Shown here: one piece after another, positions 3,027-62,526 of the stretch
Numbering within the stretch: position 1 is the first letter of the stretch
Layout: each line of letters opens with the position of its first letter
Assembly (NCBI GenBank): GCA_964600255.1
Contig: CAZRIX010000001.1
Location: 118,542 to 182,541 of the forward strand
Length of the DNA stretch: 64,000 bases
Direction of reading: 5' to 3'
Origin: an uncultured Candidatus Saccharibacteria bacterium
GTDB lineage: Bacteria; Patescibacteriota; Minisyncoccia; Phycocordibacterales; PALSA-1337
Notes under the pieces: model-generated
Told to the model about the DNA's origin: nothing
The model's input: the letters and a program-made list of their open reading frames with translations, nothing else
The model's database searches: none
Program-made: the position numbers and the translations under genes

Positions 3027-4334
<1,308 letters not shown>

Positions 4335-4352
4335 TTAATCATTTAGATATAG

Positions 4353-4485
4353 AAAAAGAGTGGTAGTGATATCCTAGGACATTTCGACGATTCAGCAGAA
4401 TCGCGCTTGGCGCACTGCGAGCTGAGAACTAGGAAATTCTTAGTAAAGAATTTCCGTGTCCGTAGATATCATTACCACTCTTTTT
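4353..4485. repeat. Structured element bounded by a 21-bp imperfect inverted repeat (AAAAAGAGTGGTAGTGATATC / GATATCATTACCACTCTTTTT) with three internal hairpins
   Basis: Read directly. The outer 21-nt arms pair with one mismatch. Inner hairpins are GGACA/TGTCC, CGATTC-AGCAG-GAATCG, GCGC-TTG-GCGC and GGAAATTCTT-AGTA-AAGAATTTCC. The element is GC-richer than its flanks and sits in the convergent eno/gpmA spacer. Confidence 0.5.
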
Positions 4486-53748: not shown

Positions 53749-53792
53749 TGGCGGAAAGAGCGCACTTAAGCGACTTTGCTAAGTCGAGATTC
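53749..53792 (-). repeat. R1: tRNA 3'-end-derived direct repeat (minus strand GAATCTCGACTTAGCAAAGTCGCTTAAGTGCGCTCTTTCCGCCA)
   Basis: Near-identical to R3 at 55157-55200. The terminal GCTCTTTCCGCCA equals the acceptor 3' strand plus CCA of the tRNA at 55336-55425. Confidence 0.7.
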
Positions 53793-53845
53793 TATGTTTA
53801 CATATAAGAACGAGATGTGTAGTTTGGAGTAAACCAAAGACTATA

Positions 53846-54526
53846 TCAAATATTTCTGGTAGAGAAATACCTTTTAACTTTTCTAATACCCACGATTAGA
53901 CTGATGGAGAATACAATAAAGATTGTAAGGAAACTTTCATTGTCAGATGAATTGTCAATATCAAACACGAGAGGAACGATAAGTGCCAATCCCCCTACAA
54001 ATAGAGTAGCCCAGAATCTAACTCTCAAAGAAGAGAGGAAGACTTTCATAGGATGACCTCCCTCTATAACTTGAGCTACCTCATAACTTGATCTAAAAGC
54101 TGGAAACCAGGTAGTCCATACACGGTCACTTACGTGATAATCTTCGGAATGCTGGAGCATTACAATTTTACTTCGATATATTTTTGCTAAGTATATATTC
54201 ACAATACCTGAAAGACTCCAACCAATAAAGATTAGAAATAACGTCGATAAAAATACAGCGTAGCCACCTGTCCCAGATATAATTGCAATAATCATTACCA
54301 AACTTGCTCCTGGGAAAAAACTTCCTATGAAATAGAGTCCCTCGATAAATACAGAAAGAAAGGCAGCCAAGTAAATATACTTTTCATCAATGTTTGAAAG
54401 AAAATCTACCAATTCCCCCATACCTGGAATCTCTGAGTTGAGAAAAAGTAGTACACCATATACCGCAAGAGCTGCTGCTGAGATAATCCAAATTATTCCT
54501 GCATATAGTTGATTCTTATTCTCCAT
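53846..54526 (-). CDS. Hypothetical polytopic membrane protein (possible VTT/DedA-like)
   Basis: 226 aa, 5-6 TM segments. FIEGLYFIGSFFPG resembles a DedA re-entrant loop motif. Confidence 0.4.
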   Translation of the reverse strand: MENKNQLYAGIIWIISAAALAVYGVLLFLNSEIPGMGELVDFLSNIDEKYIYLAAFLSVFIEGLYFIGSFFPGASLVMIIAIISGTGGYAVFLSTLFLIFIGWSLSGIVNIYLAKIYRSKIVMLQHSEDYHVSDRVWTTWFPAFRSSYEVAQVIEGGHPMKVFLSSLRVRFWATLFVGGLALIVPLVFDIDNSSDNESFLTIFIVFSISLIVGIRKVKRYFSTRNI

Positions 54527-54564
54527 TGCATAATTTTAACCTAAATCTAATAATTAAGACACAT

Positions 54565-54630
54565 TGCTCGACTCAGCATGCTGTCGCGAAAAGAGCACAT
54601 GTTAGTGACTCGTATAATGAATCTCGATTT
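54565..54630 (-). repeat. R2: diverged copy of the tRNA 3'-end-derived repeat plus shared palindromic box (GCTCGACTCAGCATGCTG)
   Basis: Shares the CAGCATGCTGAGTCGAGCA box with R3. The tRNA-like tail is degenerated (GTGCTCTTTTCGCGACA). Confidence 0.55.
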
Positions 54631-54654
54631 AGGTAATAACCACTACTCTATAAC

Positions 54655-55092
54655 TCACAAACTAAATAAGTAAATTGAGGTTGTCAAAATAAAAAGTATC
54701 AGCCATGTGTACACATACAATCTGTGGTACTTTTTTATCTGATTGCAATATTCAGTAACAAGAGAATCAGTACGGGCATTATCATTCACACCAAGAAAAA
54801 GGCTTTTTTCCATTTTAGTCCACGAAAAAGCAGTTAGAGGATTAAATGAAACTACCTTTGAATTAATTCCGTCTTTGATTAGTGCTGGTGACCATATATT
54901 AAACTTGAAACTATTTGGATAAAGTTTATTTACTCTCCTTCTAAATTTTAGCAGATGCAAGTTAAGCTGTATTATACATATTAAACCAAAAATAAAAAGT
55001 AGAGTGTAGATACCACCCCCAACAATAATAGTGATTGAAAACAAATCTAAAGACTGTATAAATGTGAGTATACTAGTAATCATAGTTAACAT
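54655..55092 (-). CDS. Hypothetical small membrane protein
   Basis: 145 aa with two TM segments at the N-terminus and one at the C-terminus. No motifs. Confidence 0.4.
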   Translation of the reverse strand: MLTMITSILTFIQSLDLFSITIIVGGGIYTLLFIFGLICIIQLNLHLLKFRRRVNKLYPNSFKFNIWSPALIKDGINSKVVSFNPLTAFSWTKMEKSLFLGVNDNARTDSLVTEYCNQIKKYHRLYVYTWLILFILTTSIYLFSL

Positions 55093-55156
55093 AATACAAC
55101 AGATAGTAACCTGAGGCTATAGCATCTCATCGAGACATGCTCGACTCAGCATACTG

Positions 55157-55200
55157 TGGCGGAAAGAGCGCACGTAAGCGACTTTGCTAAGTCGAGATTC
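55157..55200 (-). repeat. R3: tRNA 3'-end-derived direct repeat, contiguous with GC-rich element B
   Basis: TGGCGGAAAGAGCG + 23-nt insert + GAGATTCG mirrors the tRNA 3' end TGGCGGAAAGAGCGAGATTCGAACTCGC at 55336. Confidence 0.7.
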
Positions 55201-55300
55201 GGTCATAGGTCTTCGCCTGCTGGCTCAGCCTACGACCCTGCCTCCTTCGCCTTCGCTCAGTCCGGCTTTCTCATCTCGTCTTTCTTTGCAGTCAGACGCT
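55195..55300 (-). ncRNA. GC-rich conserved element B (about 85 nt core), candidate structured RNA or recombination arm. Paralogue of element A at 62251-62347
   Basis: The minus-strand core GAGATGAGAAAGCCGGA...GAGGC.GGGTCG...GAGCCAGCAGGCGA.GAC...TGACCGAATC is conserved between the two loci. It is GC-rich in an AT-rich genome and lies immediately 3' of a tRNA and a short hairpin. Confidence 0.45.
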
Positions 55301-55335
55301 CTGTTCAGAAGCCATTCAGGCTTCTTCACAGATCG

Positions 55336-55425
55336 TGGCGGAAAGAGCGAGATTCGAACTCGCGGTTCCAATTAAGGAACGGCGGTTTAGTAAACCGCTG
55401 GTTTAAACCACTCACCCATCTTTCC
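55336..55425 (-). tRNA. Class II (long variable arm) tRNA, Ser-type identity (G73), anticodon loop UUACUAA = nominal anticodon ACU. CCA encoded
   Basis: Manual fold: acceptor GGAAAGA/TCTTTCC, 3-bp D-stem with GG in the loop, anticodon stem GCGGT/ACCGC, variable stem GTTCC/GGAAC, T-arm GCGAG-TTCGAAT-CTCGC, then G-CCA. Confidence 0.7.
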
Positions 55426-58715: not shown

Positions 58716-59234
58716 GTGAAAAACAAAATAGTACAAGTAAATGACAAGATGCAAACAGGTTACGAATATGAACTTGTCTGCCCTGCTGGAAAGGAATTCG
58801 ATCCAGAGTTTAATCCAGAACTAACTCCAAAAGAAATGCTCGAGCTTGGTGTTTTTGGTGGTATATACATGAGAGATTGTACCGAAGAGTTTCCTAAGGA
58901 TTGGTTTACGAATGCCAAGTTTGCTCCTAGTGGTACTGATAAGCACATAGCATCGATCAATTTGTTTGGAGTAAATGCCAGCCAAGGTCTATCAATATGG
59001 AAAAAGAATGGATGGATATACAAAGACGATCCTAGAGGATGGTTCCAATGGTACTGTAGATACTATATGGGTCGTAGAATACCAGAAGAAGATGCAAGAC
59101 AGATCAAAAGATGGAAGATGATGAAAAGACACATGGCACAGATCTATCACAACTGCAGAGCTCAAGATATATTCTGTAGACCAAAACAAAGACAGGCACT
59201 TCTGCACTGGGCTTACGATAGCAGAAAGATATAA
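58716..59234 (+). CDS. Hypothetical conserved protein (Trp/Tyr/Arg-rich, unknown function) upstream of ung
   Basis: 172 aa. Distinctive GWFQWYCRYYMGRR...RQIKRW segment. No family recognised. Confidence 0.35.
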   Translation: MKNKIVQVNDKMQTGYEYELVCPAGKEFDPEFNPELTPKEMLELGVFGGIYMRDCTEEFPKDWFTNAKFAPSGTDKHIASINLFGVNASQGLSIWKKNGWIYKDDPRGWFQWYCRYYMGRRIPEEDARQIKRWKMMKRHMAQIYHNCRAQDIFCRPKQRQALLHWAYDSRKI

Positions 59235-59918: not shown

Positions 59919-59934
59919 GAAAAAACTGCTTTGT

Positions 59935-60435
59935 TTAAATTTTATTAATTAAAATGTTTCTATCTAGTTCTACCCTCTCATCTCTTAATATAAAACCTTT
60001 CTCATCTCTCACTGCCATATTTATCCATAGATTGATAATTTTTGCTGACCATAGTTTGTGAGTACTTCCTGCTGAATAGAACTCCAGAGAAACTTTTTCT
60101 TTTCCTTCTTTTTCTCTAGAAGAGTTAGCTATTTCCAAACCAGCCTCCAATTCTTTACCCTCCAGCACATGACCACCTTCACATCTTATATATACCCCAC
60201 CAAATTCTATTCTATCGAATATTACTCCAAACAGCTGACCTGTCCTTAATATATTCTGTGAATGTAGTGCTTCAATATTTGAACTCCAGTATATATTTTC
60301 TAGTTTTTCATCATATAAAAATTTAATTGGACTATTGTGTGGTGATCCATCTACATTTGTTGTGGCAAGTGCAATATGTCTACTTGTATGGATTAATTCT
60401 TTAGCTCTATTTGTTTTTGATTCTAAGATATTCAT
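59935..60435 (-). CDS. Pyridoxamine 5'-phosphate oxidase-like FMN-binding split-barrel protein
   Basis: N-terminal HIALATTNVDGSPHNSPIKFLYDE pattern typical of PNPOx-like/general stress protein 26 family. Confidence 0.55.
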   Translation of the reverse strand: MNILESKTNRAKELIHTSRHIALATTNVDGSPHNSPIKFLYDEKLENIYWSSNIEALHSQNILRTGQLFGVIFDRIEFGGVYIRCEGGHVLEGKELEAGLEIANSSREKEGKEKVSLEFYSAGSTHKLWSAKIINLWINMAVRDEKGFILRDERVELDRNILINKI

Positions 60436-60513
60436 AAATTTTTGTTAAATGGCGGATGGTTTAGCACTGGGATAACGATATATCATAAAGATAATTCTGC
60501 AAATTTTCCTAGA

Positions 60514-60978
60514 TTAATTTGAGTCCTGTGGCACACTAGCCAGCTTCTTTCTAGTGGGCCAGTTTGCGATGAAAAATATTATCAACAAATAACCGCCGAC
60601 ACCGACTATTGCATTGATACTCTGAAATGCTGTTCCCATTTCAGAATCAATATAGTTACTTCTGAATCCAAATGAGTATCCGTAAATAATAAAAAATATA
60701 CACAAACTTATGGAGATCAAGTGGAGACGATATCCGGGTAGATATTTTATGGTAACATACTTTCTCAAGACGGAACCAATCAAACAAGACAGTATAACAA
60801 CAATTCCAGTAAGTGCGGCTCCTATCACCACTTGGAAAGCTATGGCAGTAATTCCGTCATATGGAAAAGCCATGACACCAACAATGTATATAATCCAGCC
60901 CGCGATAAAGCTTACAAGTAGCGCCAAAAGCCTATATCCGTAGTTTATAATTTTTGGGCTTATTCTGAACGATTCCAT
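60514..60978 (-). CDS. Hypothetical small membrane protein (4 TM)
   Basis: 154 aa, four hydrophobic helices, no motifs. Confidence 0.4.
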   Translation of the reverse strand: MESFRISPKIINYGYRLLALLVSFIAGWIIYIVGVMAFPYDGITAIAFQVVIGAALTGIVVILSCLIGSVLRKYVTIKYLPGYRLHLISISLCIFFIIYGYSFGFRSNYIDSEMGTAFQSINAIVGVGGYLLIIFFIANWPTRKKLASVPQDSN

Positions 60979-61044
60979 AGATATAAAAATATTAGCATAA
61001 AATAGGCTTTTAGGTACCCACTAACTTCTATACTGTTAAATCTT

Positions 61045-61092
61045 TGCGGAACCGGAGGGATTCGAGCCCTCGTGACCTTTAGAGGGGCTCCA
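61045..61092 (-). pseudogene. Partial tRNA-Ser(GCU) copy (3' ~45 nt: acceptor 3' strand, T-arm and part of variable arm), att-like direct repeat
   Basis: TGCGGAACCGGAGGGATTCGAGCCCTCG matches the 3' end of the tRNA at 62403-62490 (TGCGGAACCGGAGGGATTCGAACCCTCG). No 5' half is present. Confidence 0.6.
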
Positions 61093-61241
61093 GGTACTTT
61101 TATCGCTTTTTCGTGAGGCACTCGGATCAACTTTATTCTAGTAAGGCAGTAATTTCTTTTTTTGTCATAACTTCAACATCGTTAAACATGTGAAGTATAT
61201 CGCCACTAAGTCCATAATGTAATCTTGTTGAGTTTGTGACT

Positions 61242-61781
61242 TCAATTGCCTTTACAAATAAGTCTTGAATCATGTTGGGAGTTAGTCCTATTTTTTTCAT
61301 AAAAAAAATCTATATCTCTTAAAGTTTCAACTTCAGAATGCATTAGAATCTTATCACGAACATCCTTTAATTTATTTAGTGTGTCCTCAAATCCAGCAAA
61401 CTGAATATCTAATAAGTAGTAGATAGACAAAACATCAGGAAACCTACCATTTTGTTTTTCAAAAGTTTTCGCGAGTCCTGACATACAGCTCTTTAAAAAA
61501 GATGTTCTGGTTGTTAACCAGAAAGTTTTATTTTTAACATCCTCATTATTTCTAAATGATTCTGTTATAAAATACCAGTAGCTAAACTCTCTATATGAAC
61601 TTAGTAAGTTCCCAACAAAAATGTCAAAATCTTTATTTTCCTGTTTTCTCATTTGTAAGTACCTTAAAGACCAAACTAAAATAGTCATCCAAATCAAAGC
61701 GTCTTTCAGGAAATTGGTCATTGATAGACCTAATAAAATGCCAAAGGATAAAATCCTTTTCCCATTCAGATAACTTACCAT
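61242..61781 (-). CDS. Hypothetical protein (islet cargo), possibly the 3' part of a frameshifted gene
   Basis: Overlaps the upstream ORF by 149 nt in a different frame. Confidence 0.35.
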   Translation of the reverse strand: MVSYLNGKRILSFGILLGLSMTNFLKDALIWMTILVWSLRYLQMRKQENKDFDIFVGNLLSSYREFSYWYFITESFRNNEDVKNKTFWLTTRTSFLKSCMSGLAKTFEKQNGRFPDVLSIYYLLDIQFAGFEDTLNKLKDVRDKILMHSEVETLRDIDFFYEKNRTNSQHDSRLICKGN

Positions 61782-62187
61782 TATTAATCATTGAATCTAG
61801 TTTACTATCCCAATTACTTAGTTCTTTTGATATATCTTCCTTTACCCTTTGCATCTGTTCCCTTCTAATTAGGCCCTTCTCTGCCTTAATTTTGTCGTTC
61901 ATGATTTTATAGCGTCCCAAATAAATGCAATAGGCGAGATCATTCCGATTAGTAGAAGAATTGTGCTCTATATTTTCATTTACGCTCCGAGTTACAAAAT
62001 CTCTAATCTCCTCTTTCATTTCCTCTGACACCTTAAAATAAAGATTAGGGAAAAGTTGTCCAATTTTTTCCTCACTTTTCTCGGAAAGTTTTAATTCTAT
62101 TTCGTACTTTTTACCACTATTTAGTTTTACTAGTTGATACGCAATAAAAGCCAAAACTCCAATAATTATTATAAATGCCCAATTCAT
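61633..62187 (-). CDS. Hypothetical protein with N-terminal TM anchor (islet cargo)
   Basis: MNWAFIIIIGVLAFIAYQLV anchor then a Lys/Glu-rich soluble region. No motifs. Confidence 0.4.
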   Translation of the reverse strand: MNWAFIIIIGVLAFIAYQLVKLNSGKKYEIELKLSEKSEEKIGQLFPNLYFKVSEEMKEEIRDFVTRSVNENIEHNSSTNRNDLAYCIYLGRYKIMNDKIKAEKGLIRREQMQRVKEDISKELSNWDSKLDSMINNGKLSEWEKDFILWHFIRSINDQFPERRFDLDDYFSLVFKVLTNEKTGK

Positions 62188-62250
62188 ACTTTAATTATAA
62201 CCTGAACTTGGTAATTCATGTACTCGGGTCGCTTTTATGTCGTCCTACTT

Positions 62251-62347
62251 TGCGGAAACGGAGGGATTCGGTCACGAGTCCTCGCCTGCTGGCTCGGCTC
62301 TCGACCCCGCCTCGGACACCTTCGTGTCCTCCGGCTTTCTCATCTCC
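62251..62347 (-). ncRNA. GC-rich conserved element A with tRNA-Ser 3'-end mimic tail (paralogue of element B)
   Basis: The minus strand reads GGAGATGAGAAAGCCGGAGGACACGAAGGTGTCCGAGGCGGGGTCGAGAGCCGAGCCAGCAGGCGAGGACTCGTGACCGAATCCCTCCGTTTCCGCA. It is separated from the tRNA by the hairpin GTTGACC-TCG-GTCAAC. Confidence 0.45.
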
Positions 62348-62402
62348 ACACTTCCACAATATGCTCGATTCAGTTGACCGAGGTCAACTTCATCGATCAT
62401 TG

Positions 62403-62490
62403 CGGAACCGGAGGGATTCGAACCCTCGAGGCCTTTAAAGGGCCTGCCTCTTTAGCAAAGAGGTATGTTAGACCACTCCACCACGGTTCC
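62403..62490 (-). tRNA. tRNA-Ser (anticodon GCU), class II
   Basis: Manual fold: acceptor GGAACCG/CGGTTCC, anticodon arm CCTCT-TTGCTAA-AGAGG, long variable arm GGCC-CTTTAAA-GGCC, T-arm GAGGG-TTCGAAT-CCCTC, discriminator G. CCA not encoded. Confidence 0.85.
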
Positions 62491-62526
62491 AGTTACTAGA
62501 ACTAGATTATATCGTATAATGTGGAA

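Follow-up and report, generated by a model that had tools for sequence, protein, structure and literature searches.

A probable non-autonomous integrative cassette beside a structured RNA-like element at tRNA-Ser(GCU) of an uncultured Saccharibacteria bacterium

Behind the tRNA-Ser(GCU) gene of an uncultured Candidatus Saccharibacteria bacterium, in the 64,000-nucleotide (nt) stretch of contig CAZRIX010000001.1 analysed here (the window; G+C content 36.6%), lie a short structured, RNA-like element, termed element A, and a gene-bearing segment bounded by copies of the tRNA 3' end. The names of homologues point to Patescibacteria, near Paceibacterota, as the origin of the window. The DNA from about 61044 to 62247 is probably a small non-autonomous integrative cassette that landed in the tRNA-end copy closing element A. 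So read, the islet would be a decayed non-autonomous integrative element of an ordinary kind with an unusual landing site; of the two, the element at which it landed deserves more interest.

Copies of the tRNA end and the cassette between them

The complete tRNA-Ser(GCU) gene occupies positions 62402–62490 on the minus strand, as called by ARAGORN and by Rfam (RF00005, 56.2 bits), close to the 62403–62490 proposed by an earlier, sequence-only reading. Over 92 nt the gene is 100% identical to its counterpart in L124, where element and cassette are both missing (L-numbers denote fetched genome or metagenome loci that were compared with the window). A distal, attR-like repeat at 61044–61092 (minus strand) comprises a remnant of the variable arm, the T arm and the acceptor 3' strand of the same tRNA, and its 5' half is absent. 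Positions 61044–61086 align with tRNA-Ser(GCU) over 43 nt at 90.7% identity (E 5e-9), and a longer alignment extends over 50 nt at 88% (61040–61089). A 29-nt probe allowing up to three mismatches found only the tRNA and this copy, with 0 matches expected from 100 shuffles. The partial 3' copy recognised in the sequence-only reading is thus confirmed, and neither ARAGORN nor Rfam calls a tRNA at 61044–61092. A second bona fide tRNA at this place was rejected, as the upstream sequence holds no acceptor 5' strand or D arm and both programs are silent.

A third copy, the proximal or attL-like repeat, closes element A at 62248–62270 (minus strand). It is identical to 61042–61064 at 22 of 23 positions and to tRNA-Ser(GCU) at 20 of 21, and it marks off, within the 1.35 kb, an element of 150 nt from a cassette of 1.2 kb. 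The order on the minus strand is the tRNA, a 45-nt hairpin trailer, a GC-rich block of about 105 nt ending in the third copy, 1.15 kb with the open reading frames (ORFs) and the 45-nt distal copy, so that the cassette begins 155 nt behind tRNA-Ser(GCU), beyond element A. The sole mismatch between the two repeats is GTTTCC in the proximal one; the distal repeat reads GGTTCC, as do the tRNA and the unoccupied site of the relative L045. The earlier view that tRNA repeats bound the ORF-bearing DNA stands, with the third copy at 62248–62270 replacing the tRNA itself as the proximal boundary.

The first cassette gene, ORF1 (61633–62187, minus strand), encodes a 184-amino-acid (aa) protein with an N-terminal membrane helix that is 57% identical to the corresponding gene product of L122. 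Twelve homologues were found at 54–100% identity, and one NCBI record is 100% identical. The AlphaFold2 (AF2) model is all-helical with a predicted local distance difference test (pLDDT) score of 76. ORF1 has no family in Pfam, PHROG or PADLOC, and no PDB relative by sequence or by a Foldseek search of the PDB with the AF2 model.

The second gene (61133–61652, minus strand) is HEPN/AbiU2-like, and its reading frame is not intact in the window. Part 1 (61242–61652) contains the HEPN R-x5-H motif (RDKILMH), and the frame is lost 18 codons later through a 1-nt frameshift at a run of eight T (T8, 61301–61308), beyond which part 2 extends over 61133–61300. As encoded and read from Met-44 (61652), the product scores 21.7 bits against the PF18734 cut-off of 26.8. 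With one T deleted from the T8 run, the HEPN_AbiU2 (PF18734) score rises to 31.9 bits, and the match covers sequence on either side of the junction. A full-length alignment of the repaired protein with the intact 175-aa metagenomic protein P0122, which is annotated as PF18734, shows 65% identity and no gap at the junction. No PADLOC model matches the gene, and a PDB sequence search with the AbiU2 homologue gave no relatives.

An overlap of 20 nt between ORF1 and the HEPN gene, seen in the window, recurs in the intact pair of L122, so the two are separate genes and not one broken gene. A fusion of ORF1 and ORF2 was rejected on the conserved overlap and on the AbiU2 score, which falls to 28.7 bits against 31.9. 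The two hypothetical ORFs of the sequence-only reading, 61242–61781 and 61633–62187, are indeed present. Their interpretation as a single frameshifted gene does not hold, and the frameshift does not lie between them: the real one joins 61242–61652 to a third ORF at 61133–61300. Its picture of a partly decayed unit without a recombinase agrees with the gene content found, a membrane protein and a frameshifted HEPN gene. The pair was probably once an abortive-infection or toxin-like module. With HEPN_AbiU2 it shares a repaired score above the cut-off, the R-x5-H motif and a small partner gene, and it differs in the frameshift after the motif, in a partner of no described family and in the lack of a PADLOC match.

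The cassette belongs to a family of modules with conserved ends behind tRNA-Ser genes. In a Patescibacteria metagenome (L122/L123), an intact pair of the two genes stands directly behind a real tRNA-Ser(ACU), and window positions 62270–61152 align with L122 7374–8494 at 70% over 1139 nt. The homology starts inside the T loop of the L122 tRNA and, on the window side, inside the third copy. In L131–L133, an ORF1 homologue is followed by a different second gene (294 aa), directly behind tRNA-Ser(GGA). The window, L122 and L131 have in common the left subterminal motif GACCCGAGTAC, which follows the tRNA end at a distance of about 20 nt and precedes a -10-like hexamer by exactly 20 nt; in the window it lies at 62220–62230 (minus strand), 20 nt upstream of the TATAAT that precedes ORF1. 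At the right end, all three carry GAYCCGAGTGCC (in L131, GACCCACATGCC) after the last gene and, some 35 nt further on, a degenerate 3' half of tRNA-Ser. The right subterminal motif of the window, GATCCGAGTGC, lies at 61118–61128 (minus strand), and a homologous motif follows the last module gene in L122 and L131. Matches to the subterminal motif number five in the window against 0.97 expected, and two of the five flank the module. A 16-mer from the right end of the module gave only three chance matches in viral contigs. The tRNA-like piece at the right end of L122 and L131 mismatches the local tRNA and hence belongs to the module; it may be read as the module's own attachment site.

ORF1 homologues also occur in other settings. 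One adjoins a DUF4238 gene in L129, and another (L125/L126) lies inside a 5–6-kb element in which the gene for a large serine recombinase and the 3' end of tRNA-Trp overlap.

The structured element behind tRNA and tmRNA genes

Element A (62251–62355, minus strand) was delineated by folding, nhmmer and covariation. It consists of a 5' strand X' (GGAAGUG..GGAG), a core with helices Pa, P1 and P2, and X, the copy of the tRNA end (GAAUCCCUCCGUUUCCGCA); the general layout of the family is an inverted copy X', the core and a direct copy X. The minimum free energy of element A is -52.3 kcal/mol (z = -4.98), and nhmmer places its core at 62264–62345 (E 1e-17). Between tRNA and element, at 62356–62401 (minus strand), lies the trailer or spacer, a hairpin of the form GTTGACC-TC-GGTCAAC with a flanking GAAG/CUGA internal loop, as read from the sequence; the corresponding spacers of other genomes are hairpins resembling terminators. 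The sequence-only reading had counted GC-rich element A among the enclosed cargo. This assignment is withdrawn: relatives without the ORFs keep the element, and a second copy is present in the window at 55195–55275.

Element A and its homologues show RNA-type covariation. In alignment A1, which holds 58 distinct homologues, 80.4% of cells in the proposed helices are paired, compared with 30–39% in slid controls, and the helices contain 248 double-sided changes against 23–69 in these controls, a value attained by none of 500 shuffles. In helix P2, 77 G-U combinations stand against 2 A-C combinations (19 against 2 without the invariant pair), and Watson-Crick pairs are interspersed in alternation with tandem G·A/A·G pairs. 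The excess of G-U over A-C, together with the pairing, fits a folded RNA read from the same strand as the tRNA, and would not be expected of a DNA palindrome. The X'/X duplex is also more stable for matched than for mismatched pairs (-16.3 against -13.8 kcal/mol, p = 1e-4).

Homologous cores were sought in species-representative genomes and JGI metagenomes with two patterns derived from conserved parts of the element; these patterns in part impose the invariance of GGGTCG, GCCAGCAGGC and TGACCGAAT in the cores. Among the matches listed, at least 82 cores remain after removal of chance matches in coding sequence; ten of these discarded matches came from the metagenomes. True copies in the species-representative genomes are confined to Patescibacteria; matches in Pseudomonadota, Bacteroidota and others are GC-rich, have no tRNA nearby and were set aside, since they look like chance matches in coding sequence. 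The core of the element had no match in IMG/VR viral contigs and phage records.

A tRNA gene lies 50–124 nt upstream on the same strand for 61 of the 82 cores (again among the matches listed). The preceding tRNAs are those for Ser (five anticodons), Ala (three), Tyr, Glu, Arg, Gly, Gln, Pro, Lys and Thr, and in total the element stands behind at least 16 tRNA species and one tmRNA gene, across many metagenomes. In 40 of the 61 cases the 17–20 nt past the conserved ...GUGACC are identical in sequence to the end of that tRNA, and five more differ by one base. The copied segment X spans GAAUC of the T loop to the discriminator and includes CCA where it is encoded in the gene. The copy trailing the tmRNA gene carries the unusual T-loop variant of the tmRNA both in the direct copy (CGATTCC) and in the inverted 5' copy (GGAATCG). 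Copies behind tRNAs are mostly free of cargo.

Two further layouts were observed in the family. Tandem arrays behind one tRNA, made up of two or three cores or of P2 halves that recur every 70 nt, occur at L094 1–215, L066 7198–7520 and L106 86–3011. The layout is permuted at L050 364–600 and L097 349–480 (minus strand), where a truncated tRNA (the 5' part up to the T stem) is joined to the core via a hairpin; behind the core come CGAATCC-NN-GGATTCGAAC and, after it, a complete copy of the same tRNA.

None of the known RNAs considered matches the element. Searches of Rfam with E up to 10 gave nothing attributable to it at either of its two window loci; the rows that fall over the cores (sX4, Pinc, FAM13A-AS1_2, sR17) are weak, far under the gathering scores and in part on the opposite strand. 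At the gathering score, the only Rfam matches in the whole window are the two tRNAs. A single mascRNA-menRNA row maps to the tRNA gene itself (62404–62490), and no rows for tmRNA or YrlA are listed at the loci searched. Signal recognition particle RNA, RNase P RNA, hammerhead, tRNA-Sec and tmRNA were considered and dropped, by eye and with Rfam. With regard to a possible kinship with miniature inverted-repeat transposable elements, X' and X form an imperfect inverted repeat, which is copied from the neighbouring gene and varies between copies, and the two element copies in the window are only 77–78% identical. The group I tRNA introns of Patescibacteria sit in the anticodon loop and are unrelated (PMC13011429). 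No published description of the element was found in the literature searched.

The only other tRNA gene of the window, tRNA-Ser(ACU) (55336–55425, minus strand; ARAGORN; Rfam 56.4 bits), is followed by the second copy, element B (55157–55285, minus strand, with its core at 55195–55275). The spacer between them (about 55286–55335) has the layout seen at tRNA-Ser(GCU) with a different stem. Element B ends in the 3' end of tRNA-Ser(ACU), its own upstream gene, within a composite site GAATCTCG-[22-nt hairpin]-CGCTCTTTCCGCCA at 55157–55200. An 85-nt core in L054 is 100% identical to that of element B and lacks the 22-nt insert. Behind element B follow two small cassettes (53749–55156) with the ORFs 54655–55092 and 53846–54526, both encoding membrane proteins on the strand of the tRNA (minus) and neither belonging to a Pfam family. 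The composite site is repeated at 53749–53792 (44 nt, 98%), at the far end of this pair, and a degenerate copy at 54565–54610 (85%) stands between the two cassettes. A tRNA-Ser with anticodon ACU (A34) accompanies tRNA-Ser(GCU) in several Patescibacteria (L005 5882–5971, L015 291–378, L041 4218–4305, L122 7305–7394); to our knowledge, A34 is unusual for bacterial tRNA-Ser.

Within the tRNA-end copy of the element, short polymorphic hairpin inserts of 25 nt and of 22–24 nt occur at one point, GAATCC|CTCC or GAATCTCG|C. One strain has the insert and a near-identical one lacks it, as seen for L001 930–960 against L045 1015–1030 and for window 55165–55192 against L054.

Occupied and empty sites, rival explanations and a possible mechanism

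The comparison with relatives suggested by the sequence-only reading shows the module to be missing in L045 and in L001/L002. L045, with flanks 96–97% identical at the nucleotide level, keeps the tRNA, the element and X (GAATCCCTCCGGTTCCGC); between its X and the PNPOx gene lie 535 bp of unrelated GC-rich DNA. L001/L002 (flanks 91–96% identical) likewise hold the tRNA, element A and X without the module, and the distal copy is missing as well; they differ from L045 by a 25-nt insert exactly at GAATCC|CTCC. Homology between the window and L001 ends at 62264 (GACCGAATCC|), and that with L045 reaches 62252. In L124, L003 and L005 the tRNA stands alone, with no element. Among the fetched relatives, the module, the distal copy and a 154-aa gene (60514–60978) are restricted to the lineage of the window. 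This gene (minus strand) encodes a multi-pass membrane protein and is also absent from L045/L001, and its membership of the cassette is only possible. Exact look-ups of the 154-aa protein and of P0121 and P0125 returned no record.

The surroundings of the cassette offer some observations of their own. The slot it occupies corresponds in the relatives (L001 477–900, L045 560–960) to about 400 bp of markedly GC-rich DNA, in genomes otherwise of low G+C, with overlapping ORFs of 88 and 109 aa on opposite strands that belong to no Pfam family. The whole interval from the uracil-DNA glycosylase (UDG) gene to recG is hypervariable (window 59919–62526 against L124 2722–9000). In L124 it holds six unrelated genes: an unannotated 309-aa gene, a GDSL lipase, an FtsX/ABC pair, a 181-aa gene behind the tRNA and a methyltransferase between the tRNA and recG. 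A 172-aa ORF at 58716–59234 (plus strand), of no Pfam family, is syntenic between the histidine kinase and UDG genes, in L124 too.

Three other explanations were weighed against the landing of a cassette in X. One holds that the repeats arose by local duplication or gene conversion without any integration, and that old ORFs were lost or replaced in the relatives through repeat recombination or indels. It would agree with the divergence of the whole UDG-to-recG interval among relatives (L124, L003, L005), with a flank past the distal repeat that is also unlike L045, and with the identity of X to its own tRNA in 40 of 61 cases, which indicates that copying of tRNA ends occurs. We consider this account unlikely, given that the same module with its subterminal motifs stands behind three tRNA-Ser isoacceptors in three genomes with different surroundings. 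An ORF1 homologue is, moreover, carried by a recombinase-bearing element, and at the second locus other small genes are enclosed by 44-nt sites of 98% identity.

Less credible still is a single 1.35-kb element (61045–62490) that entered the tRNA gene, carried in a new 3' end together with element A and the ORFs, and moved the old 3' half to 61044–61092. The distal copy does run 43–50 nt into the T and variable arms, past the 23-nt repeat, as a displaced 3' half would. Such an element is hard to reconcile with L045 and L001/L002, which hold the tRNA, element A and X without the ORFs or the distal copy, or with the presence of at least 82 homologous cores behind many tRNAs, mostly without cargo. 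It leaves the third copy (62248–62270) without a role, and the right-end piece of L122/L131, which mismatches the local tRNA, travels with the module instead. An assembly artefact or a chance similarity can practically be dismissed: the organism is uncultured and the assembly presumably metagenomic, but no such matches are expected by chance, ORF1 recurs at 100% identity in an NCBI record, and the architecture is found again in independent assemblies.

Several findings weigh against the landing of a cassette in X. The right-end piece of L122/L131 shares only 5–9 nt with the local tRNA end, and the long repeats are not a constant feature. Past the distal repeat, the flank shows no homology to the L045 DNA after X, so that the comparison with L045 shows a wholesale replacement of 60438–62251 and not a clean cassette insertion. 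At the truncated-X loci screened, displaced X tails were confined to the window and two close relatives, L001 and L056, so that X is documented as a landing site in this one lineage only. No recombinase is encoded within the cassette, whose ORFs are a membrane protein gene and a split HEPN gene, and a crude regular-expression search, a weak screen, found no resolvase or integrase motifs in the 64-kb window.

Under the preferred reading, that of a cassette landed in X, a recombinase encoded elsewhere would join the tRNA-like site of the cassette with the matching chromosomal site. The chromosomal partner would be X, the last 20 nt of the tRNA that close the element 45 nt behind the tRNA, and not the tRNA gene. 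With X as the partner, both the tRNA and the RNA element would stay intact, and the cassette would end up flanked by the 23-nt direct repeat. The crossover may have taken place at or near GAATCC|CTCC, at the T-loop/T-stem, 5' of the G/T difference; this single difference between the repeats fits such a position, the distal repeat reading GGTTCC like the tRNA and L045 and the proximal one GTTTCC. Excision would be expected to restore an empty site reading core-GAATCCCTCCGGTTCCGCAAAG-ATTTAAC and to yield a circle with the junction ..GAGGGCTCGAATCC|CTCCGTTTCCGCAAAGTAGG... On the simplest view, small recombinase-less cassettes, each with a mimic of a tRNA-Ser 3' part, would in this way integrate serially at the spare copy X.

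The sole hint of a helper comes from elements with large serine recombinases at tRNA ends in other Patescibacteria that bear an ORF1 homologue. L086 has a tRNA-Ser whose 3' end is overlapped by a large serine recombinase gene, and the product of this gene is 32% identical to the enzyme of L125/L126; the two are candidate enzyme types for the cassette. A tblastn search of the window with the L086 recombinase gave nothing, and the L125 recombinase was not found in viral contigs. The L086 gene (2583–4378) lies inside a 134-bp, 99%-identical inverted repeat (2616–2749 and 4245–4378) that sits where the spacer hairpin of the element would be, with the last 45 codons of the recombinase duplicated in inverted orientation.

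Relation to known systems and significance

Genomic islands and prophages integrate at the 3' ends of tRNA genes, for example by means of P4-type tyrosine integrases, and Williams (2002) reportedly described a T-loop sublocation of integration sites in tRNA genes. The cassette shares with tRNA islands a direct repeat from the T loop to the 3' end, cargo between the repeats, patchy presence and a defence-type cargo gene. It differs in its size of 1.2 kb, in the lack of an integrase, in a proximal site that is a copy on an RNA-like element and in a site of its own that mimics 45 nt of tRNA-Ser. Cis-mobilisable elements (CIMEs) are non-autonomous integrative elements mobilised in trans, as in ICESt1-type accretion. 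Like these, the cassette has att-like bounds and no recombinase and stands in tandem with another att-bounded unit at one target; unlike them, it has no transfer functions, and mobilisation in trans is here only a candidate.

The tycheposons of Prochlorococcus are said to target tRNA genes by tyrosine or large serine recombinases, and to form tandem arrays, partial tRNAs and recombinase-less remnants in streamlined genomes. By this description, tRNA targeting, tandem arrays and recombinase-less remnants are common to both systems, and the host phylum differs; we know of no structured RNA landing element among the features of tycheposons. With integron cassettes, the islet shares co-oriented units of one or two genes behind a fixed site and repeated recombination sites, a likeness that is clearest at the second locus. 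It differs from them in that no IntI was found in a crude screen of the window, in the absence of attC-type sites, in its tRNA-end repeats and in the presence of only one or two cassettes per site. At the RNA level, element A resembles the tRNA-like domain of tmRNA, mascRNA (MALAT1) and YrlA, since it ends in a segment like the acceptor and T arm, with CCA where encoded, beside or within a longer transcript. Unlike these RNAs, it has no Rfam match, its 3' segment exactly repeats the end of its neighbour, and it carries an inverted copy 5' of its core.

Recombinase-less cassettes with conserved ends thus recur behind tRNA-Ser genes, and the one described here illustrates how tiny genomes with single-copy tRNA genes gain and exchange defence-type genes. 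The element family itself combines strong covariation and at least 82 copies in public data with the lack of an Rfam model, and it copies the end of the preceding tRNA or tmRNA gene. It could conceivably represent a new class of structured RNA trailing tRNA and tmRNA genes, in which the duplicated end is a spare attachment site and an integron-like cassette platform built on tRNA mimicry spares the single-copy tRNA, or else a processed, possibly CCA-bearing tRNA-like RNA; we regard this proposal as speculative. Should the element prove to be a functional RNA, or to serve as a dedicated landing pad, it would add something new to the biology of Patescibacteria.

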